Assembly (NCBI GenBank): GCA_001664505.1
Contig: CP011806.1
Coordinates: forward strand, 2,285,661 to 2,317,660
Direction of reading: 5' to 3'
Length of the DNA stretch: 32,000 bases
Source of the DNA: Acidobacteria bacterium Mor1
Lineage (GTDB): Bacteria > Acidobacteriota > Polarisedimenticolia > Polarisedimenticolales > Polarisedimenticolaceae
This document shows positions 1,213-29,505 of this stretch, in pieces. The number at the start of each line of letters is the position of its first letter. Position 1 is the stretch's first letter. The position numbers and the translations under genes are program-made. Below the pieces are notes generated by a model. The model saw nothing but the letters and a program-made list of their open reading frames with translations. It ran no database searches and was not told the origin of the DNA.

Positions 1213-1496
1213 GTCAGAGAGAACGACACATCACGCCCATGGGTTCCCTAAATCAGAAACTCAAACCACGCTGCAAGGCTGAGCCAGGCTTTGCACAACT
1301 GCGCATTCAGCTAGCTCTGGACGCGCAACTCAGGTGCCCAAAACGCCATTCCCGGCTCGCGCACAAGGCCCACAAAGCGCACCGGCGACGTGCTTTGTAG
1401 GCCTCCCGTCTCCTGATAGCATAGACGGTAGAGTTTGCCCCTGAGTTCTCGAAGCTCGAACGCTCGAGTACCCTCTCTGCAAGCGCGAGGTTGAGA

Positions 1497-4400
1497 ATGA
1501 CTACCCCTGAGACTGGCCGAAGCGCCTCGAAACGGGACACTTGCCCGCACTGCGGCGTTCCCTTACCGCCACCTGGTACATGGTTTCCATTGTTGATTCT
1601 GGCGCCTTGGAACGTTGGCCAGATCCTCTCGCTGCTGTTGGGTGACACGCTGACCGCTCCGTGCGAGAACTGTGGAAAAAACCTTAAAACTCCAGCTGTT
1701 GCAGCCCTGCAACTCGAGAACCCATCTAGAGCCATCCTGGTTCCCACCGGCACGAGCACGGCGCTACCAACTGTGATGGAACAGGCGCTCCAGTCGCTTC
1801 GCAGCGAAGGTGAACAGGCGACTTCCCGTCCTGCCGTCGTGGTCGAAAACACCGAACACGCAACTCAGGAAATCCGCCAGCACGTCCTCTATTTCAAACC
1901 CGTCCTTCGGCAATTGTTCGAGGCCATTCGGGCAGATCGAACCGCGGAGTTCACGTCGCACCGATGGCGAGAACTCACGCCGTCTGCGTTCGCAGCAGCC
2001 CTCATTGCTTCCTCGGGCCTCGTGCGTGGAATCGGCGTGGACTCTTACTCACCAGACACCCACACCCGTGCTAGTTTCTGGGAAACCCACGAGGCAATTC
2101 GCCATCAGCTCGCACCAGTGCAACTCATGACGTGGGCCGCGCTTTCCTCCGAGCCCTGCACTCCTGACGAGACTTTGAGCGAGAGACTGTCAACCCACAT
2201 AAACCCCTTTCAGCTGCCAAGAGTCGTCGAACACATGGAATCTCTAGCCAAGAAATCCCTCGACTCGCCGGAGTTCTCATGGCTGCAGCGGTACGCGACC
2301 TTGGCGACAGCGGTCAGCTCCATTGCGAATGCAGGCAAAGAGACTGAACTCAGAGTGCCTTGGGCGCTTTACTTTCTGGAATTCGAGATCCTCCTACGTG
2401 ATCCGGATGCAGCTCCACTTCAACCTTTGCAACTATCGCCACACCAAGTCAACAGAACCATCGGAGACGTCGAACTCTGGAACGCGATTACGCACAAGAT
2501 CTCTACAGCGCTAGAGACGACCGACCGCGAATTGTCACCTAGCCCGGAAGAGCTCATCGCCTCGGTTCTCGAGGTCGGAACCCGCCTCTCGCGATCGCAG
2601 TTAGTTGAAGACACCCTCGCCAGTATCCGCGTTTCTTTCTCCGGAACGGCCACAGAGGACTTCGTGCTTGGATACACGACCAGACTCCTGAAGCCTCGGG
2701 TAGACCCAAGTGGTCTTGGCTCCATTCTCAAATGGCTATCTCATGCGGTGCTGGAACGTCGAGGCGCTGAACTGATTGAAAAGATCGCCGCCCGTGCCAT
2801 CGCACGGTACCCCGGGGACCGGCGATACGAAGCTACGGTTGATGCCTGGTACGGCGAGATGATGAAAGTCCTTAGACACCCGAGCGCATACCTCGAACGA
2901 GTCGGCTCGTTCCCCAGGCCATGGGAAGCCGCCTTGCCGTTCGCCTTACAGGTATCCCTGGAGAATGAACGCAGCAATTCGCTCCGGATTCTCGGAGAAA
3001 AAAAGGAGGCGCTCGAGCGCACGGAACAAATCATCGCTCGATTCGATAGCCAGGATAAATCACTTCTCGAGCAACTCGATGGAGATCGCCGTATCCTCGA
3101 ACGGAACCGCGCCATTCTGCTAAGGGAGACAGGAAGAGTCGACGCTGCCATCCCCCTGATGCTTGGACTTCTTGAGAGCGCACCGCTTCGCGAAAAACAC
3201 GACCTTCTCACGTCTCTCGGCGTCTCGTATGGAGAAGCAGGGCGTTTCGCAGAGGCTGCATCCTCTTTCAAGGAGGCGCTCGATGTCGCCCCGCAGGACC
3301 CGAGGCTCACACATAGGGCCAAACTCCATCTCGCCCAGGCCCTGATTGCAGACGGGCAGCATACCCTTGCAGCAACATTGATACTTGGCTCAGATCCAGG
3401 CGAGGTCCAAACTCCGGAAACCACCGTCATCGAGGCTGCGGTCTGGACAAACCTTCTGGTCACCAAGACCAGCCTGCCCGCTGAGGCGCAGGAACAAGCA
3501 AACCGGTCCCTTCGGGTGGCGCTGGACTTGGCGGAGTCACCTGAGATCAAGAAAGACTACGCGGCATATTTGGGGTTACTTGAGCTCGCGTTTACCATCA
3601 AGCTCTTGACGAAGGACCCGACTGCGGAAGAGAGCTTGCGGTTGCTACTGGCGCATTCTGGAGCGAAGCACCGCACCCCTGAACCAAAGTACCTAGCTGA
3701 CCTTGCTAGCATCCAGTACCGAAAAAAAGACCTTGAGCAAGCACGGGCAACGATGTCGCGAATACCGGGCGCCCTCGCATCGCATTTCGGCGAGATCCAG
3801 CGCACGGATATCGCCGCGGGCAGCACGACTCAACTCTCTTGGTCACTGGAGCATCTCGGAAGCGCAGTGACGGAAGACGAATGCAAGTGGCCGGATGTCC
3901 GCTGGGTAGCAGAGTTGTCGCGAGATGCCATAGGGCTTGCGAGAACACACCGTCAACCCAGAAAAGAAGCGACAGCTACGACAATCGAAGGCCCGATCCC
4001 CGACAGCGCTCTCGTGCCACTCGCTCCTGCTCACGGCACGCTTCTTGTCCTAGAGTGGATCCACACGTCTTCTGGCCTTCGTGCGATGTTGAGCAGTATT
4101 TCCCACGACGAGAACGTAGAGACCCAGCTACTCCCAGACCCAGGCGTAGACCTACTCAGCCTTCAACAGCGCATCCTATCCAGATTGAACTTCTGGTTCG
4201 GTAGTAGGCCTGGCGACCCGTTCGACATACCGGAGTGGCAGCGAATCCGCGATTGGCTATGCAAGGCAGCCTGTGCGTTCGAGCCCCCTATCCACTTGGT
4301 AGTCATCGAGCATCGAGTGGGCGTCGGTATTCCTTGGCACGTGGCGATCGCGGCTCACGGAACTTGCTCGTACGCTCCTAGCTGGAGGACTTTGCTGCAG

Positions 4401-5054
4401 ATACAGCAGAATGAGCGCACCGCCCCCGAATCACTGGGCACAATGAGCGTACCCCGTTTTGGAGAGTCTCGCCCTATCCGTGAGGCGCTCTCAAAATCCG
4501 CCACACGAACGAAGAAATGGGCTACCACGACTCGAATTGATCTAACTACGCACAACGATATCGAAGGCACCAAGGACTCATTCCGCGCGATAATGAGCGA
4601 AATGGACGTCGCAAAAGTTGCATGCCACGGGTACCTCGAGGAGGGAACTCTTGAGATCGCCCTCGCGCTTAGCAGCAAAGGAGCGCTACCGCCGCTTCGA
4701 GGCAGTATGACTTCATCTGATTTCAGATTAGATTGGAAGGACTGCCAAGGCCTGAGTCGCTCCTCGCCAGTGGTGTTCAGCTCCGCTTGCTCAAGCGGCA
4801 GGACTTGGAGGCGTGGCGCCGGAGAGCCGCTGGGTTTCTACGGAGCGCTTCGCCATAGCGGCACCGTTGCGCTTGTAGCACCGCGATGGGATACTGATGC
4901 CGAGGTAGTGATTCCTATCCTTGACGAGGCGTGCGAGCGATACTGCAGTGGGGAGCCTCTCGCCGACTCCGTTTGGCTCGCTTGCTCCGGAGCTGCTCAA
5001 GAACACGATGACTGGCGAGTCTGGCCGCTCGCGATACAAGGAGATTGGCGATGA
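1497..5054 (+). CDS. large CHAT-domain (caspase-fold) protease with N-terminal CxxC..CxxC zinc ribbon and central TPR-like helical repeats
   Basis: The track ORF starts at TTG 1491. I prefer ATG 1497, which is preceded by GAGG (1487..1490) with a 6-nt spacer. The C-terminal ~350 aa matches the CHAT pattern: VAKVACHGY (His codon 4626..4628), then SSPVVFSSACSSG (Cys codon 4788..4790), then GALRHSGTVALVAPRWDTDAEV. The N-terminus has CPHCG and CENCG (nt 1542..1673). The middle has TPR-like units, e.g. LGVSYGEAGRFAEAASSFKEALDVAP. No P-loop was seen. GC is visibly lower than in the flanks. Confidence 0.85.
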   Translation: MTTPETGRSASKRDTCPHCGVPLPPPGTWFPLLILAPWNVGQILSLLLGDTLTAPCENCGKNLKTPAVAALQLENPSRAILVPTGTSTALPTVMEQALQSLRSEGEQATSRPAVVVENTEHATQEIRQHVLYFKPVLRQLFEAIRADRTAEFTSHRWRELTPSAFAAALIASSGLVRGIGVDSYSPDTHTRASFWETHEAIRHQLAPVQLMTWAALSSEPCTPDETLSERLSTHINPFQLPRVVEHMESLAKKSLDSPEFSWLQRYATLATAVSSIANAGKETELRVPWALYFLEFEILLRDPDAAPLQPLQLSPHQVNRTIGDVELWNAITHKISTALETTDRELSPSPEELIASVLEVGTRLSRSQLVEDTLASIRVSFSGTATEDFVLGYTTRLLKPRVDPSGLGSILKWLSHAVLERRGAELIEKIAARAIARYPGDRRYEATVDAWYGEMMKVLRHPSAYLERVGSFPRPWEAALPFALQVSLENERSNSLRILGEKKEALERTEQIIARFDSQDKSLLEQLDGDRRILERNRAILLRETGRVDAAIPLMLGLLESAPLREKHDLLTSLGVSYGEAGRFAEAASSFKEALDVAPQDPRLTHRAKLHLAQALIADGQHTLAATLILGSDPGEVQTPETTVIEAAVWTNLLVTKTSLPAEAQEQANRSLRVALDLAESPEIKKDYAAYLGLLELAFTIKLLTKDPTAEESLRLLLAHSGAKHRTPEPKYLADLASIQYRKKDLEQARATMSRIPGALASHFGEIQRTDIAAGSTTQLSWSLEHLGSAVTEDECKWPDVRWVAELSRDAIGLARTHRQPRKEATATTIEGPIPDSALVPLAPAHGTLLVLEWIHTSSGLRAMLSSISHDENVETQLLPDPGVDLLSLQQRILSRLNFWFGSRPGDPFDIPEWQRIRDWLCKAACAFEPPIHLVVIEHRVGVGIPWHVAIAAHGTCSYAPSWRTLLQIQQNERTAPESLGTMSVPRFGESRPIREALSKSATRTKKWATTTRIDLTTHNDIEGTKDSFRAIMSEMDVAKVACHGYLEEGTLEIALALSSKGALPPLRGSMTSSDFRLDWKDCQGLSRSSPVVFSSACSSGRTWRRGAGEPLGFYGALRHSGTVALVAPRWDTDAEVVIPILDEACERYCSGEPLADSVWLACSGAAQEHDDWRVWPLAIQGDWR

Positions 5055-5539
5055 GCGACACTCTCTCTGACTTCCTTAACCACGTAGCACCCAACGACGA
5101 GGTGCTCGAGGGAGCGTTCGTCGCCTACGTCAGGTCACAAACTTCCGATCTCGACGCGGAACAGATGAAGCAGGTGCTCCTGAGGCGGATCGATGTCACA
5201 ACCTTCGAGAACGGGCAACGGGCACTGCAAGGCGCTTTGAGTAACCGACAAGACGCAATACTCCTTTACCTGAGCAGAGACTGGACCGACCCGGAGAAGC
5301 GCCCACTCATCCAAGGAGCCTTCGAGGATTCATCGAAGAAGCTCTTCGCCTTGGAGTCGGTTCTCGTCGCTACGGTATCGATGTACGCCATGTATCTGGT
5401 GGCAACTGGCGGACTTCGAAGCGAGACTGTTTCCACTACCCGCAACGCAGACGGAAGCTACACGACAACCGTATCCCGTGAGTGGGCCCCATCGAGCACT
5501 CTCGCACGGCTTTGGAAGGCCCTGACGACGGAGGAGTGA
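5051..5539 (+). CDS. small single-pass membrane protein of unknown function, translationally coupled to the CHAT protease gene
   Basis: The track starts at TTG 5045. ATG 5051 is preceded by AAGGAG (5038..5043) with a 7-nt spacer, and it overlaps the CHAT stop (TGA 5052..5054) as ATGA. The 162-aa protein has a ~100-aa polar N-terminal part, one hydrophobic helix (LFALESVLVATVSMYAMYLVATGGL) and a Ser/Thr-rich tail. I recognise no family. Confidence 0.65.
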   Translation: MSDTLSDFLNHVAPNDEVLEGAFVAYVRSQTSDLDAEQMKQVLLRRIDVTTFENGQRALQGALSNRQDAILLYLSRDWTDPEKRPLIQGAFEDSSKKLFALESVLVATVSMYAMYLVATGGLRSETVSTTRNADGSYTTTVSREWAPSSTLARLWKALTTEE

Positions 5540-5554
5540 CGACCAACCCGCTCC

Positions 5555-5578
5555 GTTCCTAGCTGCCGTCTAAGGAAC
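5555..5578. terminator. weak hairpin between convergent genes (possible terminator)
   Basis: GTTCCTAG (5555..5562) can pair with CTaAGGAAC (5570..5578), giving an 8-bp stem with one bulge and a 7-nt loop. There is no U-tract. It lies between the small-protein stop (5539) and the GH92 stop (5666). Confidence 0.25.
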
Positions 5579-5665
5579 AGACGCTTGCCAAGCGCTGGCT
5601 GGCCGGCCTCCGGATTGGCGTATCCTGCGAACCAACGACTTCAACCCCTCGTATGACGAGAGAAC

Positions 5666-8641
5666 CTATTCGATCAGCAACTCGTCCACGAAGATGAACG
5701 CGTTGTCGCCGTGGCCGGGGTGCCATCGCGGGATCGGTCCGTAGTTGAGGGCGGTGACCTTGACGTAGCGGGCCGAGACGCCGGAAACCCGTTGGGCGAT
5801 CTCGCGCAAAACCACGCCTTCTGCGTCGTCGGGGACATCGTGTCCCAGCCGCGCGACCTCCCGGTAGCTCTCTCCGTCGCTGGATACCGAGACCAGTACC
5901 TCCTTCGGCATCCAGATCCACGACTTCTGTTCCTGGAGAAAGGACGCACCCAGACGGCGCAGCGTCTGTTTGCGGCCGAGATCGACGATCGCCTCGAAAT
6001 CGCTGTACTGGTAGCCCTGCCAGCCGCCCATACGCCAGTTGGACGCCCCGGGAAGCCCATCGACCAGCGCCGCGTCCCCCCCGGCGGTGTACTGGGAGTT
6101 GGGTGTGTGGGTCGTAACGACCGACCACTCGTTGGGAATCTTGTGCAGATAGGCGGCCACCTCGGGGCTGCGACGACCGTCGGCGGTCTCGGCGTGGAAA
6201 CGCAGGCGCGCACTGTCTCGAACCTCGAAGGGGCCGCTGTAGTCTCGCGGTCTGCCGCCGTTGATCGCGTACCGAACGGAAGCCCCCGACTCGGCAGCCA
6301 GGGCTACCTGCATGGGATCGCGGAACCGGTCCGAGGGCGCCTCGACATAAGGCGCCGCGGGAACCGGAGCACCCGCGACCGAGGATGGCGGACGCTCGCC
6401 CCGCCCCCAATCGGGAGCGGGGCCCGTCGAACGCCGAACGGTCAGCGTGCCGCCACCGAGGATCTCACCATGCCGCACGAACGCGCGGACGAGGGGTGAT
6501 CCGTTCAGCTCCACGCTCGCAACGTACTGCCCGTCCCCTGGTGACTCGATGGTGAATTGCTCACCACTCTCCAACTTGAAGATCACCCGGTCGAACAGGG
6601 GTGCGCCCAGTGTGTAGATGTCCTCGCAGGGAGAGACCGGGTAAATCCCGATCGACGACAGCACGTACCAGCTCGACATCTGCCCGCAGTCTTCGTTGCC
6701 CGACAGACCATCGGGTTCGTTGGTGTAGAGCTCGTCGAGAATCTGCCGCACCCGCTCGGCGCTGCGGTCAGGCAACCCGGCGTAGTGATAGAGCCAGGCC
6801 ATGTGGTGGGAGGGCTCGTTCCCGTGTGCGTACTGGCCGATCAGGCCGGTGATGTCCACCTGATGGCGGCCGGTGGTTTCCGCCTCGGCGCTGAACAGGG
6901 CATCCAGCCGTTCGACGAAGGCGTCCTCGCCGCCGAGCGCGGCCATCAAACCCTCAACGTCGTGAGGCACGAACAGGCTGTACTGCCAGGAGTTGGCCTC
7001 GGTGTAGTTCAGGTCGACCCTGCGCGGGTCGAAGGGCTCGATCCAGCGCTGGTTGTGCCGCGCGCGCATGAAGCCGGTGGCGGGATCCAGCAGGTGCCGC
7101 CAGCCCTGGCTGCGGGCGTCGAACTCGGCGACGATGTCGTCCCGCCCCATCGCCTCGGCGAAGCGGGCGATGCAGAAGTCGTCGAAGGCGTACTCCAGGG
7201 TCTTCGATACCGACTCGGCGTCATCCTCGGCGGAGATGAATCCCTGGCGCTTGTAGGCCTCGAGGCCGCGCGCATCCCGCATGGCGCTCTGCAGCATGGC
7301 CTCGAGGGCCAGCTCCCGGTCGAAGCCGTCGATCCCCTTGCCCCAGGCGTCGACGATCACCGGCACCGCGTGGTACCCGATCATCGTGTCGGTCTCGTTA
7401 CCGGCCAGTTCCCAGACCGGCAGCCTTCCGCCCTCCCGATACATCGCCAGCATGGTGTGAATGAACTCCTCGGTACGTTCCCGCTCGATCAGGGTGAACA
7501 GCGGATGAGTCGCCCGAAAGGTGTCCCAAAGCGAAAAGACCGTGTAGTGCCTGCGTCCCTCGGCGACGTGGACCTCCCGGTCCATACCCCGGTAGCGACC
7601 GTCGACATCGGAGGCCAGGTTCGGCGCGATCAAGCTGTGGTAGACGCCGGTGTAGAAGTTGACCCGTTGCGCCCGGGTGCCCCCCTCGACGGTCAGGCGA
7701 TCGAGCGCGGCGGTCCACACTTCGCGCGCCGCCGCGCGCACCTGATCGAAGGACTTGCCGGCGGTCTCGGCTTCCAGGTTGCCTCTGGCGCCGGCGACAT
7801 CCACCGGCGACAACCCGACGTGAACCGTCAGCGGCCGGTCGAGTTTTCCGAAGCTCAGCACCGCGCGGACATCGTCGCCTGCCGCCTCGGTCGCGTCCGG
7901 CTCCAGCGGCAGCAGCGGGCCGGCAGGACCGTCCACCTTGGCGCCTCCCTCCCGCCGCTCGAAGCCGGCCGAGAGAATCGGCTCGCTGAAGGTCGCGTGG
8001 AACCAGAGCTGCTGATCCCGAGCCCAGCCGGTGGAATGGCGCCAGCCCTCGACGGCGCGGTCGCCGGCCATCCGCAGCAAGGAGTCGGTGACCTTGTCCC
8101 GATGGGCCAGGTCGACCACCACGTGGGCCTCGGCGCCTGCCGGGAAGGTGTAGCGATGCACCCCCGTGCGCTCGCTGGCGGTGAGTTCCACATCGACCGG
8201 ACCCTCGTCCAGCCGCACGGCGTAGAAGCCCGGCTCCGCCTGTTCGCTGGTCTTGGCGAAGGGAGAGGCGTAGCCGTTCTCCGGCCCGTCGACGGCGCCG
8301 TTCAACGTGGTCGCCTCACCGGCGACGGGCATGAACAGCACATCGCCGTAATCCGACACCCCGGTGCCCGAGAGGTGGGTGTGGGAGAAGCCGTAGACCA
8401 CCTCGTCGGTGTAGTGGTAGCCCGAGCATCCGTCCCAACCGGTCAGCCGGGTGTCCGGGCTGAGCTGCACCATCCCGAAGGGCAGCGTGGCTCCCGGGAA
8501 GGTGTGGCCATGCCCGCCGGTGCCGATGAACGGATCGACCAGATCGAAGGGGGCGTCGCTTCGGTCACCGGGCCCGGCGCAACCGGCGAGGATCAACAGC
8601 AGGGCCGCGCAGGACAGGACCGGGGCCGCCGGTCGCCTCAA
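5666..8641 (-). CDS. GH92 family alpha-mannosidase lipoprotein with C-terminal discoidin (F5/8 type C / CBM32-like) domain
   Basis: GH92 signature blocks are present: GGHGHTFPGATLPFGMVQLSPDT, FSLWDTFRATHPLF, GNEPSHHMAWLYHYAG and GNEDCGQMSSWYV. The C-terminus (...ARYVKVTALNYGPIPRWHPGHGDNAFIFVDELLIE) resembles a discoidin/CBM module. The start is revised from 8818 to TTG 8641, preceded by GGAGG. This yields (M)RRPAAPVLSCAALLLILAGC, a lipoprotein signal with an LAGC lipobox. The 8818 start would bury that signal 60 aa inside the protein. Confidence 0.9.
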   Translation of the reverse strand: MRRPAAPVLSCAALLLILAGCAGPGDRSDAPFDLVDPFIGTGGHGHTFPGATLPFGMVQLSPDTRLTGWDGCSGYHYTDEVVYGFSHTHLSGTGVSDYGDVLFMPVAGEATTLNGAVDGPENGYASPFAKTSEQAEPGFYAVRLDEGPVDVELTASERTGVHRYTFPAGAEAHVVVDLAHRDKVTDSLLRMAGDRAVEGWRHSTGWARDQQLWFHATFSEPILSAGFERREGGAKVDGPAGPLLPLEPDATEAAGDDVRAVLSFGKLDRPLTVHVGLSPVDVAGARGNLEAETAGKSFDQVRAAAREVWTAALDRLTVEGGTRAQRVNFYTGVYHSLIAPNLASDVDGRYRGMDREVHVAEGRRHYTVFSLWDTFRATHPLFTLIERERTEEFIHTMLAMYREGGRLPVWELAGNETDTMIGYHAVPVIVDAWGKGIDGFDRELALEAMLQSAMRDARGLEAYKRQGFISAEDDAESVSKTLEYAFDDFCIARFAEAMGRDDIVAEFDARSQGWRHLLDPATGFMRARHNQRWIEPFDPRRVDLNYTEANSWQYSLFVPHDVEGLMAALGGEDAFVERLDALFSAEAETTGRHQVDITGLIGQYAHGNEPSHHMAWLYHYAGLPDRSAERVRQILDELYTNEPDGLSGNEDCGQMSSWYVLSSIGIYPVSPCEDIYTLGAPLFDRVIFKLESGEQFTIESPGDGQYVASVELNGSPLVRAFVRHGEILGGGTLTVRRSTGPAPDWGRGERPPSSVAGAPVPAAPYVEAPSDRFRDPMQVALAAESGASVRYAINGGRPRDYSGPFEVRDSARLRFHAETADGRRSPEVAAYLHKIPNEWSVVTTHTPNSQYTAGGDAALVDGLPGASNWRMGGWQGYQYSDFEAIVDLGRKQTLRRLGASFLQEQKSWIWMPKEVLVSVSSDGESYREVARLGHDVPDDAEGVVLREIAQRVSGVSARYVKVTALNYGPIPRWHPGHGDNAFIFVDELLIE

Positions 8642-8754
8642 CGGGAGAACCTCCGGTAGAGCGCGACGGTGGCCCACAGCGATACCCCGAAGATCAGCGC
8701 AGGCAAGATCCAGGACCAGAAGAACCCGGTCAGCGGCGGTTCGGCGGGGATCAT
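8638..8754 (-). CDS. 38-aa single-TM micro-protein (MIPAEPPLTGFFWSWILPALIFGVSLWATVALYRRFSR)
   Basis: ATG 8754..8752 overlaps the stop of the upstream micro-ORF as ATGA and has AGGAGG 6 nt upstream. Its own stop (TGA 8640..8638) overlaps the GH92 TTG start (TTGA). The sequence is one clear TM helix with a positive C-terminal tail. Support comes from coupling geometry only. Confidence 0.5.
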   Translation of the reverse strand: MIPAEPPLTGFFWSWILPALIFGVSLWATVALYRRFSR

Positions 8755-8861
8755 TGCTTGCCTCCTCTCTTCTTGTACGACCACCAGGCCAGCCCCAGGC
8801 CGACGAAGGAGGCGACATAGGCGATGCTCATTCCGATCAGCGTCGCGAGTCCCTTGTCCAT
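8751..8861 (-). CDS. 36-aa single-TM micro-protein (MDKGLATLIGMSIAYVASFVGLGLAWWSYKKRGGKQ)
   Basis: ATG 8861..8859 shares its A with the SSF stop (TGATG) and has GGGAGGAGG just upstream. The sequence is one TM helix followed by a KKRGGK tail. It is too short to appear in the ORF track. Confidence 0.5.
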   Translation of the reverse strand: MDKGLATLIGMSIAYVASFVGLGLAWWSYKKRGGKQ

Positions 8862-10753
8862 CACGCCTCCTCCCAGCGGCTGCGGGCCTCGACCTCGTCG
8901 AGGAACCTGGCCTGCCCCGCCTCGAACTCCTCGGAGACCGCCTTGAGCTTCGGATCAATCACCCAGTAGATGATGAGCGTGCCGATCACCGCCGCGCCGA
9001 GCAGGGCGAAGCCCTCCATCTGCATCAGCAGCACCTGCACCAATCCGAACAGCAGTCCGGTGTAGACCAGCGGCGAGAGCAGGATCGCGATCCAGTCCTC
9101 CCGGGTCCACTCCTGAGCGGCCTCGGGGGTCCACGAACGGCGGATGCCCATGGATCGGGTCACCGGACCGCTCTCCTTCTTCGTCTCCTCGATCAACCCG
9201 CGCCGCACCGCCTCACGATGCACCGGCCCCCACCAGCCGAGCGGGCGGGTCATCACGTAGTACTGCACCAGCCGGTCCATCGGCTCCGGCTTTGTCAAGA
9301 AGGTCGCAGGCAGGAAGAAGCAGGCGCCCAGCGCCATCAACAACCAGAACTGGATGTGGTCGGGAAGTTCGGGCAACAGATTGAAACCGGGCAGGATCCA
9401 GACCACGAGCCACGACACCCCCAGGTTGGCCATCCAGGCGGCCAGGTAACCCCAGGCGTTGAAGCGCCACCAGACCACCTGCAGGATGTTGGGCAGCCAG
9501 ATGCCGGCGCTCATCAACCACAGGGCGAAGATCAGCCACTGGGTGATCTCCTCCATCATCATCCCGTAGAAGAACGAGCCGATCAAAAGCACCGCGGTGG
9601 TCCAACGTCCGACGACGACCAGCTTCTGCTCGCTGGCCTCGGGATTCAGGTAGCGTTGGTAGAGATCCCGGGTGAAATACAGCGCACCCAGGTTGAGGTG
9701 AGACGAGATCGTCGAGAGGTGGATCGCCAGGATCGCGCCGAAGAACACGCCGATCAATCCCATCGGCAGCAGCTCGAAGCCCAGCCGGAACCAACCGAGT
9801 TCCGAGACCGCCGTGTCCTTGATGTCCGGCAGCATGACGAAGAAGGCCAGGATCGAGACCGCCCAGAAGGCGTTGCGAATCAGGGTGATCGCGCCGCCGG
9901 CCCACAGGCCGTAGGTCGCGTCCCGCACGGTCTTGGCCGACTGGATCCGCTGGGCCTCGACGTACCAGTCGATGCTGGTACCCATACCGAACCCGCCGAC
10001 CACGGCGATGACCAGCATGGTCAACCACCACAGCATCGGAAAGTCGCCGTCGGATACGCCGGTAAAGGCGAAGGGATCGAGGCGCCACTCCTGGCCCAGC
10101 TCGACCAGCTTGCCGGTGATCTCGCCGGGCCCGCCCGCGGCGACCACGCCGACCAGCGAAACCAGCAGGATGGCGAAGACGGCGACGATCCCCTGGAGGA
10201 AGTCCCCCATCACCACGCCCCAGTAGCCGGCAGCCAGGGTGTAGATCGCGGTAATCAGGCTCGGCACGATCAGGCCGACCCAGACCGGCCAGCCGAAGAC
10301 CAGCTCGCCGACCTTGCCCATGGCGATGCCGACCCAGCCGAGGATGAACATGTTCATGAACACCTGCCAACCGGCCATCCAACCGCGCAGGAGTTCGGCC
10401 CCCAGCCCCGAGAATCGGAGCGACTGCCATTCGGCCTGGGTGTAGGCCAGCGAGCGGCGGAAGATCCGCGCGGCGACGAAGGCGCCGATAGCGGTCCAGG
10501 CGCTGAAGAAGGTGTACCAGAGCCCCCGCAGTCCGTCCTTGTAGATCACGCCGGTGATCCACATCGGGGTATCGGTCGCGGTGTGCGTGCTGAAAACCGA
10601 TGAGGCGGGCAGCCACCAGGGCAGTCCCCGGCCGGCCAGGAAGAAGTCGGATTCCGAACGCCGCGCCAACCGGTAGAACCAGAAGGCCCCGCCGACCATC
10701 AGCAGCAGGAACAGCGAGGTCCAGAAGATGTCGATGGAACCGAAACGGATCAA
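8861..10753 (-). CDS. sodium:solute symporter family (SSF) transporter
   Basis: 630 aa and polytopic. The N-terminus (...SDFFLAGRGLPWWLPASSVFSTHTATDTPMWITGVIY) is typical of SSF/SGLT-type transporters, and there are many hydrophobic helices. The start is TTG at 10753. Long overlapping alternative-frame ORFs are low-complexity. Confidence 0.9.
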   Translation of the reverse strand: MIRFGSIDIFWTSLFLLLMVGGAFWFYRLARRSESDFFLAGRGLPWWLPASSVFSTHTATDTPMWITGVIYKDGLRGLWYTFFSAWTAIGAFVAARIFRRSLAYTQAEWQSLRFSGLGAELLRGWMAGWQVFMNMFILGWVGIAMGKVGELVFGWPVWVGLIVPSLITAIYTLAAGYWGVVMGDFLQGIVAVFAILLVSLVGVVAAGGPGEITGKLVELGQEWRLDPFAFTGVSDGDFPMLWWLTMLVIAVVGGFGMGTSIDWYVEAQRIQSAKTVRDATYGLWAGGAITLIRNAFWAVSILAFFVMLPDIKDTAVSELGWFRLGFELLPMGLIGVFFGAILAIHLSTISSHLNLGALYFTRDLYQRYLNPEASEQKLVVVGRWTTAVLLIGSFFYGMMMEEITQWLIFALWLMSAGIWLPNILQVVWWRFNAWGYLAAWMANLGVSWLVVWILPGFNLLPELPDHIQFWLLMALGACFFLPATFLTKPEPMDRLVQYYVMTRPLGWWGPVHREAVRRGLIEETKKESGPVTRSMGIRRSWTPEAAQEWTREDWIAILLSPLVYTGLLFGLVQVLLMQMEGFALLGAAVIGTLIIYWVIDPKLKAVSEEFEAGQARFLDEVEARSRWEEA

Positions 10754-10919
10754 GAGGCCCCCCCCGCGGCGTGTACAGGCCGCAAGGGGCAGCTTACCCT
10801 GCGGGGCGGCCCGTACAAAAGCATCGATTCCCGCGGGTTCAGCAGGGCTGCGGGCCTATCCGGGGTTACTCTCGGGCTTCACTGCGGCGCTCCGGCGCAC
10901 GCCCGGCAGCGAGGCTCAG

Positions 10920-11636
10920 ATGAACGACAGCTCCAGCGGAAGACGCAATTCCTCAGGTCAGCCGATCGGCTTCGACGTCCCGGGCTGGGAGCCCTGCCCC
11001 GCCCCCGACGGCCGGGTGCTCGAGGGGCGCTTCTGCAGATTGGAACCGGTGGATGTCGAGGCCCACGCCGACACCCTGTTCGAGGAACTGCACCGCGGCC
11101 CCCAGGACGGCTGGACCTACCTGTTCGAGGGGCCCTACCCCGACATCGAGACCTACCGCGCGTGGATGCGATCTTTCTGCCTCGGCCGGGATCCGCTGTT
11201 CTACGCCATCGTCGTCGACGGCCGCCCCCTGGGGGTCGCCGCATACCTGCGCATCGCTCCCCAGCACGGCTCCATCGAGGTCGGCCACATTCACTACGCT
11301 CCGGCGCTGCGCCGCACGCCGGCGGCTACCGAGGCGATGTACCTGATGATGCGCCACGCCTTCGACGACCTGGGCTACCGGCGCTACGAGTGGAAGTGCG
11401 ACGCCCTCAACGCCGGCTCGCGCCGGGCCGCCGATCGCTTCGGCTTCCAGTACGAGGGCACCTTTCGCCAGGCGCTGATCTACCGCGGCCGCAACCGGGA
11501 CACCGCCTGGTTCTCGCTGCTCGACCGGGAATGGCCCGAGCGGCGGCGGGTCTTCGAGGCATGGCTGGCCCCGGAGAACTTCGACGCCGACGGGCGGCAG
11601 CGCCAGCGCCTGGGCGAGGCCGGCTCCAGCGACTGA
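10920..11636 (+). CDS. GNAT family N-acetyltransferase (RimJ/RimL-like)
   Basis: The track ORF starts at 10728 but would then overlap the SSF start. ATG 10920 gives MNDSSSGRR.... The core (GVAAYLRIAPQHGSIEVGHIHYAPALRRTPAATEAMYLMMRHAFDDLGYRRYEWKCDALNAGSRRAADRFGFQYEGTFRQ) matches the Acetyltransf_3-type GNAT fold. Confidence 0.85.
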   Translation: MNDSSSGRRNSSGQPIGFDVPGWEPCPAPDGRVLEGRFCRLEPVDVEAHADTLFEELHRGPQDGWTYLFEGPYPDIETYRAWMRSFCLGRDPLFYAIVVDGRPLGVAAYLRIAPQHGSIEVGHIHYAPALRRTPAATEAMYLMMRHAFDDLGYRRYEWKCDALNAGSRRAADRFGFQYEGTFRQALIYRGRNRDTAWFSLLDREWPERRRVFEAWLAPENFDADGRQRQRLGEAGSSD

Positions 11637-11652
11637 AGCCGAGCCTCGAAGA

Positions 11653-12252
11653 CTAGAAGCGCACCGAGGCTCCGACCAACACCTCGACCGGGTCGATTCC
11701 CAGCACGTTGGAGTTCGCCTCGGGGGATAGCTCCATCTGCAGGTAGCGCAGTTGGGCATTGAACGACCAGCCGGATTCGCCACCCGGCACGTTGACGCCG
11801 AAACCCGCCCCGAAGATCAACTCGTCGTCGACGGGGGCACCGGGAGACATGCCCACCGGCTGGATGTCATCCCAGAGCATGTAGCCCAGCACGGGACCGG
11901 CGAACAGATCGACCTTCTCATTGCCGAAGTGGAAGTTGACGGCGCCGAGAATCCGGATGCCCTCGACGTCCCCGTCGTCCATGTCCGGCTGCCCGGGTTC
12001 CATGAAGATCAGCTCCGATTCGAACAGGCCCAGGGCCGGCTCGACGCCGATCGAATCGGTGACCATGAACTCGAGCCCTGCCTCGAAACCGAGGCTCTCG
12101 TCCAGTTCGGTGGTCTCCCCGCCCCCCGGATCGAAATCCGAGGTGGGCATGCTGTAGACCAGGTTGAAACGGAACGCCCGGTCACCTTCGGCCCAGGCGG
12201 TTCCGCCAGCCAGCAGGACGAGAATCAGGGCCAGGGCCCATCGTGAACGCAT
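11653..12252 (-). CDS. small outer-membrane beta-barrel protein (OmpW/OmpA-barrel-like)
   Basis: AAGGAG lies 7 nt upstream of ATG 12252. It has a signal peptide (MRSRWALALILVLLAGGTAWA), alternating amphipathic beta-strand patterns and a C-terminal ...VGASVRF typical of OMPs. Confidence 0.8.
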   Translation of the reverse strand: MRSRWALALILVLLAGGTAWAEGDRAFRFNLVYSMPTSDFDPGGGETTELDESLGFEAGLEFMVTDSIGVEPALGLFESELIFMEPGQPDMDDGDVEGIRILGAVNFHFGNEKVDLFAGPVLGYMLWDDIQPVGMSPGAPVDDELIFGAGFGVNVPGGESGWSFNAQLRYLQMELSPEANSNVLGIDPVEVLVGASVRF

Positions 12253-12378
12253 CGGTTTTCTCCTTTCGATCCCGTATCTGGTCGCAGGATACCCGGGCCG
12301 GTTCAGACGGTGCGGTCGAAATCCCTGAAAAATCTCCCCCTCGTCTTTCGGGCTCCGGGAGCCTATAATCGGAGGGTT

Positions 12379-12588
12379 ATGTCAGACGCATCCAAATCAA
12401 GAGCCCTGCTGTTCGGACTTCTGACCGGGATCGGTGTCGGCGCCGCCGCGGCCTACTGGGCCGTCACCCGGCGCAAGACCGCGCCTCAGTCCCCCTACGC
12501 CCGTTTCGGCGCGCCCCGCCGGCCGACCAAGCGGGTCTACAAGGACATGAGCCGCCGTCTGGACCGCATGCGCGACGCCGGCCTCTAG
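12379..12588 (+). CDS. small membrane-anchored protein of unknown function
   Basis: ATG 12379 is preceded by GGAGGG (12371..12376). The 69-aa product has one TM (ALLFGLLTGIGVGAAAAYWAV) and a basic tail. The track start at 12310 is less likely. Confidence 0.5.
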   Translation: MSDASKSRALLFGLLTGIGVGAAAAYWAVTRRKTAPQSPYARFGAPRRPTKRVYKDMSRRLDRMRDAGL

Positions 12589-12615
12589 GGCCGCAGCGAG
12601 CAGCAAACGGATACT

Positions 12616-12637
12616 CCCTGCTCCCGCCAGGAGCGGG
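12616..12637. terminator. hairpin between convergent genes (possible terminator)
   Basis: CCTGCTCC (12617..12624) pairs with GGAGCGGG (12630..12637). The stem is 8 bp including one G-U pair, with a 5-nt loop. There is no clear U-tract. Confidence 0.3.
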
Positions 12638-12682
12638 CCCCGTGCTACAGGCCTGCGTCCGACCCTCCCGACCGGGCCGCGC

Positions 12683-13255
12683 CTAGAGTTCCAACTCCCC
12701 CGCAATACCCCGCAGCGCCTCGAGGCAGAACTCGATGTGAGCGTCGAGTTCCAGCTCCAGGTCCGCGGCTCCCTCGCGGATGTCCTCCCGGTTGACGCTG
12801 GCGGCGAAGGCCTTGGCCTTCATCTTCTTCTTCACCGACTTGACCTTGACCTCGGCCAGGGACTTACCCGGTGTGACCAGCGCGCAGGCGGTCAGGAACC
12901 CACACAACTCGTCGCAGGCAAAGAGCGCCTTCTCCAGATCGCTGTCCCGGGTGACCCCGGTGTAGGGAGCGTGAGACATGATCGCCCGGCGGAACCACTC
13001 GGGGTATCCCTTCTGCTCCAGGATCTCCGAACCGCGGTAGGGATGATCTTCGAGGGACGGCCAACGCTCGTAGTCGAAGTCGTGAAGCAATCCGACGAGA
13101 CCCCATGAGTCGGGGTCACCCCCGTAGCGGGGCGCGTAGGCCCGCATGGCTGCCTCGACGGCGTAGGCGTGCTTGAGCAGCCCCGGTTTCTCGGTGTACT
13201 CGCGAAGCAGGGAGAGGGCGTCGGCGCGAGACGGCAGGCCGGCGGAATCGGTCAT
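12683..13255 (-). CDS. HD-superfamily metal-dependent phosphohydrolase
   Basis: It has the H...HD motif context (LLKHAYAVEAAMRAY...WGLVGLLHDFDYERW...) and a later SHAPYTG. The start is set at ATG 13255, preceded by GAGGTG, rather than the track start at 13297. Confidence 0.8.
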   Translation of the reverse strand: MTDSAGLPSRADALSLLREYTEKPGLLKHAYAVEAAMRAYAPRYGGDPDSWGLVGLLHDFDYERWPSLEDHPYRGSEILEQKGYPEWFRRAIMSHAPYTGVTRDSDLEKALFACDELCGFLTACALVTPGKSLAEVKVKSVKKKMKAKAFAASVNREDIREGAADLELELDAHIEFCLEALRGIAGELEL

Positions 13256-13331
13256 GGTCACCTCTGAGTGGTTGGCCCGTCCATTGTAACGGGGCAAACA
13301 CGTGACCGGTGTGACCAGCCGGGGCGCTACG

Positions 13332-14213
13332 CTAGGGCTTGCGGGCGACGATGCCGGCCACGGCGCGATCGGGACCGCCGTGGCGCGAGGGCCCGACCAG
13401 TTCGCGGTAGCGCAGGACTTCCCAGTCGGCGAACAGCTTCTTCAACTCACCCGGCTCGAGCAGGTATTCCGGACGCTTCGGCCGGCCCAGCCGCGCCTGT
13501 TCACTGGTGAAGGTCTGGTAGACCACCACGCCGCCGGGGCGCACCCCGTCGCGGATGTCGTTGAACAGCGGCCGGTAGAGGAAGTTGAACACCATGATCA
13601 CGTCGTAGGCGTCGATCGGCACGATGTAGGTGCCATCCTCGACGTTGCCGACCACCGCGCGAATCGGAGCACCCAAGCGGCGCGCCGCGGTCCGGGCGGT
13701 AGCGACCGCCTGGGGATCGGCATCCACCCCGTCGACGTCGAAGCCACGGGTCGCCAGGTAGATCGCGTTGCGCCCCTCGCCCATGGCGATGTCGAGGGCG
13801 GTCCCGCGAGGCAACAGGTCGAAGTTGTCGATCAGGAAACTGGAGGGAGCGATGCCGTGGCGGTGAGGACCGATCTCGGCCGACGGCGGCCCCGCAGACA
13901 ACGGGCCCGGCCAGATCGACAGACCGCCGTTGACGTTGAACAGGGTCGCGAAGCCGTGCTCGGCCAGCAGCTGGCAGGCGGACACGCTGCGAATGCCGTG
14001 CTCGCAGATCACCGCCACCGGGATGCCGCTGTTGGGCACCTCGGGGATGCGCTGCTCAAGTTCGTGGAGCGGAATCAGGTGAGCCCCGGGCACGTGGGCG
14101 TTGACGAACTCCGGTTCGGTCCGCACATCGAGCACGACGATGGGATCTCCCATCGCCAGCTTCCGGTACAGTTCTCCGCCGTCGATGGACGCGAAGCGCT
14201 TTTCTCGCACCAA
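13332..14213 (-). CDS. rhodanese domain fused to class I SAM-dependent methyltransferase (TehB-like)
   Basis: The N-terminal rhodanese has an intact active-site loop: VVLDVRTEPEFVNAHVPGAHLIP...VAVICEHGIRS (CxxxxR[ST]). The C-terminal half has SAM motif I (ALDIAMGEGRNAIYLATRG) and post-I/II motifs (FDVDGVDADP..., YDVIMVFNFLYRP, GGVVVYQTF). Confidence 0.85.
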   Translation of the reverse strand: MVREKRFASIDGGELYRKLAMGDPIVVLDVRTEPEFVNAHVPGAHLIPLHELEQRIPEVPNSGIPVAVICEHGIRSVSACQLLAEHGFATLFNVNGGLSIWPGPLSAGPPSAEIGPHRHGIAPSSFLIDNFDLLPRGTALDIAMGEGRNAIYLATRGFDVDGVDADPQAVATARTAARRLGAPIRAVVGNVEDGTYIVPIDAYDVIMVFNFLYRPLFNDIRDGVRPGGVVVYQTFTSEQARLGRPKRPEYLLEPGELKKLFADWEVLRYRELVGPSRHGGPDRAVAGIVARKP

Positions 14214-14349
14214 GGGGCTCGAGCCTCGAATTTCCTGGATTTCCGGGGGGCGCGGGGACCGTGGGGGGAACCGCGCGGGACCGGGTGAATATAGCGAATG
14301 GCCGGGCCCGGCGCACGTCGCCCGCCCCGGCCGCCGGGAAGCCCCGAAA

Positions 14350-15030
14350 CTAGCGCAAAACCCGGTATCTCAGGTAGATCTCATCCCCTTCCCGGGTCAG
14401 ATCGGCAAGCTCCAGCCGGGTCTGGTCGGCCATGGCGAAGCCCGGCCCCTCCAGCAGGGTCGGAGCCTCCCGGCCGCCCAGGAGCGAGGGCGCCACGGTG
14501 ATGAACAGCTCGTCGAGCAGATCCGCCTGGGCCAGCGCCCAGTTGAGCTCTCCACCACCCTCGGCCAGCAATTGCTCGACGCCCCGCTCGTGGAGCCGCT
14601 CCAGCAGTGCCGCCATATCTACCCGGCCCGACCCGACTCTCCAGACTTCCGCCTTGCCCTCGAGAGCAGCGACCCGCTCGGCCGGCGCCTCGTCGACAGT
14701 GGCGACGATCAGGCTGTCCGCCCGCTCCGGGTTGAAGAATCCGGAGTCGGGATCCACCGACAAGCTGCCACTGACCAGCACGTGCACCAGTTCGCGCTGC
14801 TTGCCCAGGGACTCCCGGTAGGCCTGCATCTCGGCGTCCCGCACGTGGAGTGGCGGATCGTCTGCCCGCAGGGTTCCGGCACCGATCAGCACCGCGTCCG
14901 CCCGGGCCCGCAGCCGGTCCATGTTCTTCTTGTCGAAGGCGGAGGTGAACTTCGGGTACTCGCGGGCCGCCGAGGTGATCTTCCCGTCGGCGGTCATCGC
15001 CATGTTGAGGTAGACGTGGGGGCGCTTCAT
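14350..15030 (-). CDS. RibD C-terminal domain / dihydrofolate-reductase-like reductase
   Basis: Start set at ATG 15030 (MKRPHVYLNMAMTADGKITS...). The motifs RADAVLIGAGTLRADDP and VEQLLAEGGGELNWAL are typical of the RibD_C/DHFR-like family. The track start at 15159 adds an Arg-rich extension. Confidence 0.8.
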   Translation of the reverse strand: MKRPHVYLNMAMTADGKITSAAREYPKFTSAFDKKNMDRLRARADAVLIGAGTLRADDPPLHVRDAEMQAYRESLGKQRELVHVLVSGSLSVDPDSGFFNPERADSLIVATVDEAPAERVAALEGKAEVWRVGSGRVDMAALLERLHERGVEQLLAEGGGELNWALAQADLLDELFITVAPSLLGGREAPTLLEGPGFAMADQTRLELADLTREGDEIYLRYRVLR

Positions 15031-15268
15031 TGGATCTGGGCTCCTGCCGCCCTTTCCGGCGGGTCGGCATAGGGGAAGCATAGCGGCGCTCAGGGAGATG
15101 TCGAGCCGCGCGGGCCGGACTCCCCTGCTGCGTCCCCCCCGCGGCAGAGTCCGGACCATCGAAACTCCCGGGGCCTTCCTCGCGTTAGGCCCAACGAGAC
15201 CCGGCGCTCACACCGGCGAGGTGCGCGCGCTCGAGGGGGCGGGCCGACCCGCCGGAGGGGGGATCGCG

Positions 15269-28600: not shown

Positions 28601-29470
28601 CCAGGAGGCGTGGTCCAGCCACCCGGCATTCCAGCGGGCGTTGCAGTTCCAGGTCAACCCGGGCTCGGGAATGCGGCAGCCGACCTCTCCGGCGGTCGCG
28701 CCGGATGCGGGGACGACCACCTCGTAGGCTGGCCCGATGCCGCCGATGGTGTCGAGACTCACCCGGTCCTGTTCGAAAGTCACGTCCCCCGGAGTCATGC
28801 GGAACGGCATGCCGTCGGGCCAGAAGCGGAACGACCCGTTGGTGTTGGTCTCCTGGAAGCGGAAGGTCAGATCCTGCTTCAGCCGCACCTCGTTGAAGTT
28901 GATCGTCTTGCCGCCGGTGGAACGCACGCTGTTCGGATAGACCAACGTGGCCTGGTTGCCGGTGGTGGCATCGGTGCGGGCGCCGTCGCTGCCCCGGAAC
29001 AGCACCTGGGGAATCACGTAGTTGAGGTTCCCCTCGGCGACGCACTCGGTGCGCAAATCGTGATTCTGGTTGGGGACGTAGGTCGTGGTGTCGTCGGCCG
29101 GCACGTAGGCCGGCTCGGGGCCGATGTTCGGGTCCTTCACCACATCGCCCAGGAAGAAGATGTTCATCCAGTCTTCCTGGGGAGCGCAGAGACCCAGATC
29201 CTCGTAGGGACCGAACTCGACGCTGATCTCACCGTCGAAGCTGAAGGTCCCGTCCCCGTTGTCGGTGCACAGATGGCACTCCTCCACCGTGGCCCGGATC
29301 TCGAACTCCGGGTCGCCGGCGGCAAACAGGAACACGTCGGATCTGAAGTCGCAGCGACTGACCGAACCCTCGACACAGGTCGAGGGCGCCGGCCCGGCCA
29401 GAGTCGCCGATGTGGCGGCCAGGGCCAGGACAATCGGAAGCCATCGCGATTTTCCGGTTCGCCTAAACAT
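25679..29470 (-). CDS. large secreted protein of unknown function (orphan, 1263 aa)
   Basis: Start revised to ATG 29470, with GAGG 6 nt upstream. The signal peptide is MFRRTGKSRWLPIVLALAATSATLAGP. The protein is Gly/Asp/Pro/Thr-rich with apparently beta-rich composition and scattered Cys pairs (e.g. NRCSNDSDCPGGTCDAG). I recognise no domain. The frame is coherent over 3.8 kb while the alternative frames are Arg/Gly-rich junk. Confidence 0.75.
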   Translation of the reverse strand: MFRRTGKSRWLPIVLALAATSATLAGPAPSTCVEGSVSRCDFRSDVFLFAAGDPEFEIRATVEECHLCTDNGDGTFSFDGEISVEFGPYEDLGLCAPQEDWMNIFFLGDVVKDPNIGPEPAYVPADDTTTYVPNQNHDLRTECVAEGNLNYVIPQVLFRGSDGARTDATTGNQATLVYPNSVRSTGGKTINFNEVRLKQDLTFRFQETNTNGSFRFWPDGMPFRMTPGDVTFEQDRVSLDTIGGIGPAYEVVVPASGATAGEVGCRIPEPGLTWNCNARWNAGWLDHASWAPRNVSFTHLGFQLELDLPSTAEVDFEPAFPDGVWVRLDGPAAATMVDGTFVDGGFDGGTMWLEYGPREICDDAIQSRRFTLNDDRLGPQITQHGGILAGVADLNEQQPGDTGPEPFTFTFNSLTDLGCGTLWIPPLQADTFLPGGLGNPQDVQVLARGFAPEGRGLYAGLNYNRNLMCVGGTNANNRCSNDSDCPGGTCDAGIWSPVCPGAATPPDWAASVNELPPVIKSIPADDLEKELVFFVRGSGVTGVFDGGIDPTPLNDPNGFKMDFNSWGHAFKGNRSEYADTVMRGAINFPWPSSTMIPFGDMRLCNCGEPKDADVPSGIAPGKLKYWDAEYLPYGLAFTSVPGDTDVQCNGDKATSVEVTASTPVPHFQPTPTSDFSLDPNGVPGAIKPIDFTQFEFEPNSLGLQPYTYDVSEFELQPWAGFPSECQVYDCDGFPPPTQPLGRYDAIGEIDVPWFGSTEGDTVIRRTDVVAATYQVDVHEPGFPDVPSKSSILASRTMASGTIDLQYRLDYFRPEGTKDPGDGDNENGVGVFLGYADQGGGQRSVQLGSVPVASGIQTRHGLTRSDLGAGSVLRLWDAILPAARGDLDTIVPASLLNPFAGAYDGALAKLGGALPEPQALTTALHDSGALADLANHPDLQTSFAVAAPGMNASKMTGHLDLSADGADLAFLDATIDTGGQFFGLDRSTLSIDRHVKETSNGALQPIQEFSRRQIAGAMSMPAEQSIDFPSVPGMQWDFDFDVSGSPPSFTFNSLTGSLDLTKGGLSGIGFDKAGMTLKYWSDGDWYFDAGLKLKFNGYGAHGDILLGNCKTMEPLKSLDPTVGKFLNNLNSFQGGYARLGVQGNIFDFGCLLRVSAGMEVGGWYISDNFGGKVRGWVSGKGACLVSVRGDLTLLGNTDGDVFKLAGDMWVGGGFGFCEEDEWDSPSDVLNDGWCASCVVRGNVTGKTPPKFKIKMSGPKVKCSL

Positions 29471-29505
29471 GCAGTACCTCGCTGATCGTTGTGCTGCCCT
29501 CCGGG

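Follow-up and report, generated by a model that had tools for sequence, protein, structure and literature searches.

EACC1 and Pepco are small proteins that partner caspase-like or other proteases; once cleaved at a specific site, both turn into pore-forming toxins (Evans et al., bioRxiv 10.1101/2025.11.14.688446). Cleavage of EACC1 by its caspase-like protease separates a non-toxic N-terminal fragment, autoinhibitory according to modelling, from a toxic fragment that permeabilises liposomes (bioRxiv 10.1101/2025.11.14.688446). DdvA of Myxococcus xanthus is a TPR-CHAT transmembrane anti-sigma factor (PDB 8ROT/8RW5; PMC11506125), proposed to cut a linker beside its transmembrane helix and thereby release its N-terminal zinc-binding anti-sigma domain (PMC11506125). 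Secondary descriptions present CATRA (short for caspase- and TPR-repeat-associated; its small protein is CATASP) as a ternary system whose effectors vary, GT4 being one example (PMC8195603). Here we describe an island in the genome of Acidobacteria bacterium Mor1, lying within an analysed stretch of 32,000 nucleotides (the window), in which the gene for a predicted TPR-CHAT protease (gene 1, ABI59_09470) overlaps the gene for a small partner protein (gene 2, ABI59_09475). The two genes form a rare, widely transferred and uncharacterised cassette. Judging from comparison with these systems, it most likely works in the manner of the known protease-effector death modules, although its partner family is new and its protease, of separase-like type, stands alone.

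The gene pair and its relatives

The island spans positions 1213-5665 of the window and, as a first-pass annotation of this DNA had described, holds exactly two co-directional, ATGA-overlapping genes. They stand between a TPR gene (232-1212) on the left and a GH92 mannosidase gene (5666-8818) followed by an SSF symporter gene (8861-10753) on the right; these neighbours all lie on the - strand and the pair on the + strand.

1497..5054, + strand: gene 1, predicted TPR-CHAT cysteine protease, 1185 aa, ABI59_09470; GenBank annotates the last 1092 aa only
5051..5054, + strand: ATGA stop/start overlap of genes 1 and 2
5051..5539, + strand: gene 2, partner protein, 162 aa, ABI59_09475, unannotated family

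The overlap indicates probable translational coupling of the two genes. A full-length, k-mer-prefiltered search returned each of them only itself, as if both were orphans, a picture that was overturned by a search with the CHAT domain of gene 1 alone and by a HMMER scan of 1.84 billion representatives with gene 2. The scan gave 135 hits at E <= 1e-3, gene 2 itself included, nearly all of them ~160-175 aa long and aligned across most of their length. The ten family clusters that were looked up had one or two members each, and their source name, if any, was "hypothetical protein".

A gene 2 homologue lies directly 3' of each of the two closest CHAT homologues (35-39% identity). Further loci came from a profile of the small protein (14-sequence subset), which located 2 genome loci and 12 metagenome loci, from contig look-ups, which added four, and from tblastn, which added a Streptomyces linear plasmid and a Photobacterium 1.69-Mb replicon. 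Synteny among homologues, on which the first-pass annotation had staked its proposal beforehand, is conserved: in every locus with upstream DNA except one (L017), the small gene sits directly 3' of a gene 1 homologue, which is full-length (~1135-1231 aa) wherever the contig permits. At the junction, most loci have the identical 4-nt overlap; in the rest, 16-59 nt separate the two genes. In the exceptional locus L017 (2421-5345), an IS21 element (IstA, 545 aa; IstB, 274 aa) and an excisionase-like gene occupy the place of the CHAT gene, with an intact partner gene directly downstream; it looks like a copy disrupted by an insertion sequence (IS), leaving the partner gene orphaned.

Pairwise distances among the CHAT domains correlate with those among the partners (r = 0.72, Mantel p = 2e-4, 12 loci), and an all-against-all comparison of the flanks revealed no third conserved gene besides antisense shadows and near-duplicate contig pairs. 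We consider it nearly certain that genes 1 and 2 are a real, co-functional pair. The hosts, counted as four phyla, are patchily distributed and comprise Acidobacteria, a deltaproteobacterial metagenome-assembled genome, Marinobacter, Photobacterium (on a megaplasmid) and Streptomyces (on a plasmid). The two closest CHAT homologues (L001, 1-50, and L003, 1-3) had been called as stand-alone CHAT proteins of ~360 aa. This reading was rejected, as only a few bases of either contig remain upstream of the CHAT region; L001 has an in-frame stop at nt 6-8, and a split or short form of the protease is conceivable.

The island also differs from its surroundings in composition. Its guanine-plus-cytosine (GC) content is 57.9% versus 67.7% in the rest of the window, the lowest among all windows of 4453 nt (those outside the island range over 65.9-70.7%), and GC at third codon positions (GC3) is 0.616 in gene 1 and 0.687 in gene 2 versus 0.78-0.91 in 12 neighbouring genes. 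The tetranucleotide L1 distance between the island and the rest of the window is 0.457, native chunks of equal size giving 0.10-0.19, and the mean GC of 60-nt windows is 0.578 in the island versus 0.675 in the GH92 gene (Mann-Whitney p = 6e-12). The low-GC island of the first-pass annotation thus holds in direction and significance, but its hand-counted samples (48-67% versus ~73%) had exaggerated the contrast, as the gap is ~10 points and not 20. Its remark that codons ending in A or T are enriched is borne out by AAA/(AAA+AAG) (0.48 versus 0.13), ACT/(ACT+ACC) (0.47 versus 0.05) and TTA/(TTA+CTG) (0.14 versus 0.01). Horizontal acquisition of the island, also proposed there, is supported at the sequence level, because the foreign composition is accompanied by a patchy host spread of the pair, often near IS elements. 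At the island edges we found no integrase among the window genes, no tRNA and no convincing flanking repeat. A 17-nt direct repeat (82%) at 1062/5604 was considered as a boundary; it is weak and was judged to be a chance match, because one copy sits within the TPR gene. An Rfam scan of the whole window returned no match (no tRNA-like feature, no CRISPR).

The protease compared with DdvA, Csx29, separase and CATRA

The gene 1 product can be divided as follows.

1539..1841, + strand: N-terminal four-Cys zinc ribbon, CpXC-like, aa ~15-115
1851..3956, + strand: all-alpha solenoid, putative sensor or scaffold, aa 119-820
4002..5051, + strand: CHAT (caspase-fold) domain, aa 836-1185
4626-4628, + strand: codon of His1044, motif ACHG
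4788-4790, + strand: codon TGC of Cys1098, motif SACSSG

Pfam recovers both domains that had been read from the sequence in the first pass, with a CHAT match (PF12770) at aa 954-1159 (E = 1.3e-9, 38.3 bits versus a cutoff of 24) and detectable TPRs at aa 534-628 (nt 3096-3380). The CHAT profile is matched in 11 of the 12 members of the gene 1 family, and both His1044 and Cys1098, the latter encoded by the very codon previously singled out for mutation, are invariant across the 12 aligned sequences; they form the predicted catalytic dyad and fit the pattern of caspase-fold (clan CD) cysteine proteases, with His in xHG after a beta-strand and Cys in xACxxG. NCBIfam, PHROGs and PADLOC gave nothing meaningful for gene 1. 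Seven homologues of full length can be aligned with it from about residue 12 onwards, up to the C-terminus (1185). Within the zinc-ribbon motif (C-x2-C...C-x2-C), Cys16, Cys19 and Cys56 are invariant and Cys59 is mostly conserved, and the N-terminal module gives a weak match to Pfam CpXC in 3 of 12 homologues (E = 0.009). A weak match to Peptidase_C50 was seen in one homologue.

The GenBank start of ABI59_09470 corresponds to residue 94 of the open reading frame (ORF), which leaves a protein of 1092 aa and omits 93 upstream codons (1497-1775). The zinc ribbon encoded there (Cys16, 19, 56, 59) is conserved in all full-length homologues, and the ATG at 1497 has a GAGG 6 nt upstream of it. The deposited start has therefore almost certainly been placed too far downstream, and the annotation is truncated.

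An AlphaFold2 (AF2) model of gene 1, built from a 12-sequence alignment, is of medium quality (predicted local distance difference test score, pLDDT, 78; predicted template modelling score, pTM, 0.61) and consists of an alpha/beta zinc domain (aa 1-115, low confidence, pLDDT ~60), the solenoid (119-820) and the alpha/beta CHAT domain (836-1185). In a Foldseek comparison with the PDB, DdvA came first (8RW5/8ROT, E = 3e-13), followed by separases (human, yeast and worm) and then by Csx29 chains; these top hits span E = 3e-13 to 5e-7, with modest template modelling scores of 0.23-0.45. A sequence-profile search of the PDB with gene 1 returned TPR proteins only, at profile positions 548-757, and did not match the Csx29 chains. 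By modelled fold, gene 1 appears to belong with separase, Csx29 and DdvA. A search for a Walker A motif in gene 1 found none, and a hydrophobicity scan of gene 1 and its homologues found no conserved transmembrane segment and no signal peptide. A transmembrane helix in the protease was considered and dismissed, as the hydrophobic maxima fall at non-homologous positions between homologues. Because Walker A motif, conserved transmembrane segment and signal peptide are all missing, the gene 1 product is predicted to be a cytoplasmic, separase-type TPR-CHAT protease without a nucleoside triphosphatase (NTPase) domain.

Gene 1 and DdvA have the same layout, which begins with a zinc-binding module, continues through a helical scaffold and TPRs and ends in a CHAT domain that carries a His-Cys dyad; the sequence identity over the Foldseek alignment is ~12%. 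DdvA, however, is a single polypeptide with its own transmembrane helix, a periplasmic TPR-CHAT part, a CHCC anti-sigma domain and a cognate extracytoplasmic function (ECF) sigma factor, whereas gene 1 lacks a transmembrane helix and signal peptide, carries a four-Cys CpXC-like ribbon and has no linked sigma gene, and the hydrophobic helix of the present system resides on a separate protein. Csx29 of Craspase (type III-E CRISPR) is likewise a TPR-CHAT protein with one co-encoded partner, Csx30, and its fold matches that of gene 1 at E = 1e-9 to 5e-7, cleavage of the partner being a feature of Csx29. Gene 1 exceeds Csx29 by ~450 aa, having a zinc ribbon and a solenoid in addition, and neither the window nor 12 related loci contain gRAMP/Cas7-11, a CRISPR array, Csx30, Csx31 or RpoE. 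The first-pass annotation had listed cas genes, an array, an NTPase and a gasdermin as missing, and our searches, including that for Walker A, agree.

The separase-securin pair resembles the present one in that separase combines an alpha-solenoid with a C-terminal caspase fold at similar size and is also regulated by a small partner; it differs in that separase is eukaryotic and in that securin acts as a disordered pseudosubstrate, the present partner being a folded protein with a hydrophobic helix. The nearest named concept is CATRA, which, as secondary descriptions have it, is likewise computationally defined and phyletically restricted and combines a caspase-fold protease, TPRs and an associated small protein. 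As far as these descriptions go, CATRA differs from the strict two-gene unit found here, and Pfam, NCBIfam and RefSeq gave no CATRA or CATASP model or name, whether for the two proteins or for their homologues.

The partner compared with protease-activated effectors

The partner is confidently modelled by AF2 (pLDDT 90.2, pTM 0.80), with six helices in aa 5-96, a non-helical linker (97-102), a 17-residue helix (103-119), a beta-hairpin (124-144) and a short helix (149-159).

5051..5338, + strand: N-domain, acidic six-helix bundle, proposed pro- or inhibitory domain, aa 1-96
5339..5356, + strand: non-helical conserved linker, aa 97-102, putative cleavage site
5357..5413, + strand: hydrophobic helix block, most conserved part, aa 103-121
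5420..5527, + strand: beta-hairpin with conserved D134-G135 turn, then short C-terminal helix, aa 124-159

Gene 2 has no match in Pfam, NCBIfam, PHROGs or PADLOC, and 125 members of its family compared with Pfam matched no family consistently. A PDB sequence-profile search was empty, and Foldseek found no match of the model in the PDB or BFVD. Conservation in the family peaks at the linker, the helix that follows it, Trp78 and Asp134-Gly135. The linker consensus reads KLPV(I/V)E, and its Glu102 is present in 92% of members; that of the helix block reads xxILAxVAMYGMYLxxTGG, and its Tyr112 is present in 98%. The mean net charge of the family is ~-9 before the hydrophobic helix versus ~+0.5 for the remainder.

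As in the EACC1/Pepco and gasdermin modules, a protease gene here adjoins the gene of a small non-enzymatic protein, in a pairing that is conserved. In the published cases the cut takes away an autoinhibitory part, and what is left permeabilises membranes; the partner here is likewise two-part, its own parts being an acidic N-domain and a hydrophobic C-terminal part that contains beta-strands. The differences are considerable. At 162 aa the partner is larger than EACC1 (two fragments, ~13 kDa in total), its gene lies downstream of that of the protease, and the protease itself has ~1200 aa without a STAND NTPase, a diversity-generating retroelement or another recognised sensor. The partner matches none of the EACC1, Pepco/Trypco and gasdermin families in Pfam and has no fold match, the negative for EACC1 and Pepco assuming that their models are in the Pfam copy used, in which the sister families VMAP-M7 and TPR-S are present. 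Gasdermins (~240-280 aa) are larger than the partner, which is mostly helical; no gasdermin appeared among the Foldseek hits, and Pfam and PADLOC gave no match. The earlier statement that the locus matches no described system therefore stands as regards named systems in PADLOC, NCBIfam and Pfam, but the general logic of a caspase-like protease with a small, latent pore-forming partner has already been demonstrated by experiment for EACC1/Pepco.

A proposed protease-effector mechanism and its alternatives

The reading that we favour, tentatively and with slightly less than an even chance of being right as a whole, is that of a horizontally acquired, self-contained two-gene protease-effector cassette for conflict or defence with a full mechanism of cleavage and membrane damage. 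A trigger, probably derived from infection, would activate the gene 1 protease, with the zinc ribbon and the ~700-aa alpha-solenoid as the likely sensor or scaffold. The His1044/Cys1098 dyad would then cut the partner in or close to the KLPV(I/V)E linker, a site proposed because the two-part design of the partner, with its exposed and conserved linker, resembles the logic of EACC1/Pepco. Such a cut would part the acidic N-domain and the C-terminal module, which is hydrophobic and slightly basic, and the freed module could insert and oligomerise in the membrane, with growth arrest or cell death as the outcome. Cleavage of the partner, the position of the cut, the membrane activity, the trigger and an anti-phage role are all steps that we infer. 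Taken separately, a conflict or defence role for the pair seems rather likely, and the chances that the partner is the substrate of the protease appear evenly balanced, whereas its action as a membrane-damaging effector is tentative and clearly short of even. More speculative again is the view that the partner founds a new family, with a new fold, of latent effectors that damage membranes. Its licence would come from a stand-alone separase-like TPR-CHAT protease able to sense the trigger itself, through its zinc ribbon and solenoid, without an NTPase, a CRISPR complex or a second messenger; we regard as doubtful, though worth stating, such a minimal "bacterial separase plus executioner" immune module spreading across phyla.

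Several observations weigh against the favoured reading. The proposed link between protease and partner draws on synteny and on published modules, and PADLOC has no model for either protein. The model of gene 1 is of moderate quality (pLDDT 78, 12-sequence alignment). Defence-gene neighbours were seen in several loci, and some loci, the window included, have housekeeping neighbours. The linker of the window's own partner diverges from the consensus and reads KLFALE. The hydrophobic helix itself is ambiguous. The first-pass annotation had called gene 2 a small membrane protein, and one helix does exceed the usual Kyte-Doolittle threshold of 1.6 (19-residue maximum 1.67 here, family median 1.92), but the Hessa 19-residue sum is ~+2 kcal/mol here and has a family median of +2.05 kcal/mol with no member at or below 0, and a stretch just C-terminal of the helix that is K/R-rich across the family is a poor fit to a simple N-in/C-out anchor. 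It is plausible that the partner is a membrane protein; a soluble, latent partner with a sheltered hydrophobic helix fits equally well, and constitutive membrane insertion is not established, because the helix is only marginally hydrophobic.

The resemblance of gene 1 to separase, which is itself restrained by a small bound partner, would suit a partner that is no substrate but a securin- or antitoxin-like regulator, inhibitor, co-sensor or membrane tether; the protease, when released or activated, would then act on proteins of the host or the phage. Caspase-like proteases that have no effector can defend alone (bioRxiv 10.1101/2025.11.14.688446), and tight coupling and co-divergence suit any obligate complex equally. 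The partner, however, is compact and confidently folded (pLDDT 90), unlike the disordered pseudosubstrate securin, and its most conserved element is a hydrophobic helix, which would be unusual in a soluble inhibitor. We hold this alternative to be unlikely. That DdvA is the best structural match of gene 1, and that the partner's layout of helical domain, linker and hydrophobic helix resembles a single-pass anti-sigma factor, would point instead to a signalling device like DdvA or Csx30/CalpT, in which the partner is tethered to the membrane and cleavage of its juxtamembrane linker frees the N-terminal helical domain as a regulator, for example of a transcription factor. This possibility is weakened because no sigma factor is linked; neither a sigma factor nor any other third gene is conserved beside the pair, and the partner has neither a zinc-binding anti-sigma motif nor a Pfam match. 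The hydrophobic helix and the hairpin that follows are moreover better conserved than the N-domain that would be released, and a module that crosses phyla would need its host-specific target to be conserved as well. We judge the signalling device to be improbable.

It could also be that the pair is not immune at all, and is either a selfish addiction cassette of toxin-antitoxin type or a mobile pair for niche housekeeping proteolysis. The neighbours in the window are ordinary metabolic genes, and the family is rare (clusters of 1-3 members) and often travels with IS elements. Yet a large sensor-like solenoid, a caspase-fold protease and a small latent partner are together typical of conflict systems, and several loci adjoin restriction, Shedu, Iet-like or toxin genes; this is, in our estimate, the least probable of the alternatives.

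Should the protease-effector reading be correct, the pair would (i) extend the growing set of proteolysis-gated bacterial death modules (gasdermin, EACC1, Pepco and MBL) by an effector family that is new and probably has a fold of its own; (ii) present a separase/Csx29-type TPR-CHAT protease as self-sufficient in the role of sensor and executioner, without CRISPR or a STAND NTPase; and (iii) offer a two-gene protease-gated switch with one dedicated substrate that is attractive for engineering, comparable to Craspase-Csx30. The analysis also gives a name and a context to ~134 clusters of "hypothetical protein" and corrects the gene start of ABI59_09470.

Neighbouring genes and other features

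The flanks of the related loci are variable and often contain mobile or conflict genes; other loci, including the window, have ordinary neighbours. One locus (L005) carries an IS3-type integrase, an IS21 IstB fragment, an HNH nuclease and an ankyrin protein, another (L007) a PIN-domain protein, a third (L010) an Mrr-like nuclease matching the PADLOC candidate PDC-M36A, and contig P0007 an IS66 element. In L018, the pair is followed by IS110, IS91 and a phage-type integrase, and two tandem reverse transcriptases of ~491 aa (RVT_1) with an ORF of 110 aa (2414-6088) diverge from the CHAT gene; the best PADLOC matches of these reverse transcriptases are to generic or group-II-intron-like models, not to a specific type of defence-associated reverse transcriptase (DRT). 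On the Photobacterium replicon (L021; Photobacterium sp. GJ3 pGJ3-1, 10586-14355), conflict genes and mobile genes make up a mosaic. Downstream of the pair come the gene of an S-type pyocin/GH-E HNH nuclease toxin, one IS4-type transposase and, in addition, a patatin-like phospholipase; upstream of it are an integrase, an RHS-repeat fragment and two further transposases of IS4 type. In PLSDB, the record of pGJ3-1 comes without annotation.

The Streptomyces plasmid (L020; Streptomyces sp. NBC_00467, NZ_CP107895.1, 3947-5847) has another arrangement, in which two small hypothetical genes (171 and 164 aa), an IetA-like AAA ATPase gene (PADLOC IetA, E = 2e-37) and the pair follow one another on the same strand. 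The stop of the ATPase gene overlaps the start of the CHAT gene, the upstream junctions touch or overlap, and a Shedu SduA fragment lies just downstream. Such a locus may represent a variant of five genes, where the CHAT protease takes the place of the IetS subtilase beside an Iet-like ATPase to which it is coupled; the arrangement was seen in no other related locus.

The non-coding parts of the island in Acidobacteria bacterium Mor1 comprise the following features, and a promoter scan of the first of them gave no match to the sigma-70 consensus.

1213..1496, + strand: upstream intergenic region, presumed promoter and 5' untranslated region, GC 57.7%
5540..5665, no strand assigned: right-hand intergenic region, GC 61%
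5595-5581, - strand: terminator-like hairpin, belonging to the convergent GH92 gene

Elsewhere in the window, an ORF of 1389 aa (25679-29848, - strand) has native-like GC3 (0.86) and no Pfam match at E <= 1e-5. It adjoins a gene (17545-23961) whose product, of 2138 aa, has FG-GAP repeats and MopE-type metal-binding motifs, and both products are large, uncharacterised and probably surface proteins. At 29601-32000 on the + strand, a gene that runs past the window end encodes a Ser/Thr protein kinase to which a long TPR array (TPR_12/TPR_10) is fused, and a PD40 beta-propeller protein with a Trans_reg_C DNA-binding domain is encoded at 15014-17488. The kinase-TPR and PD40 proteins are native in composition and unrelated to the island.

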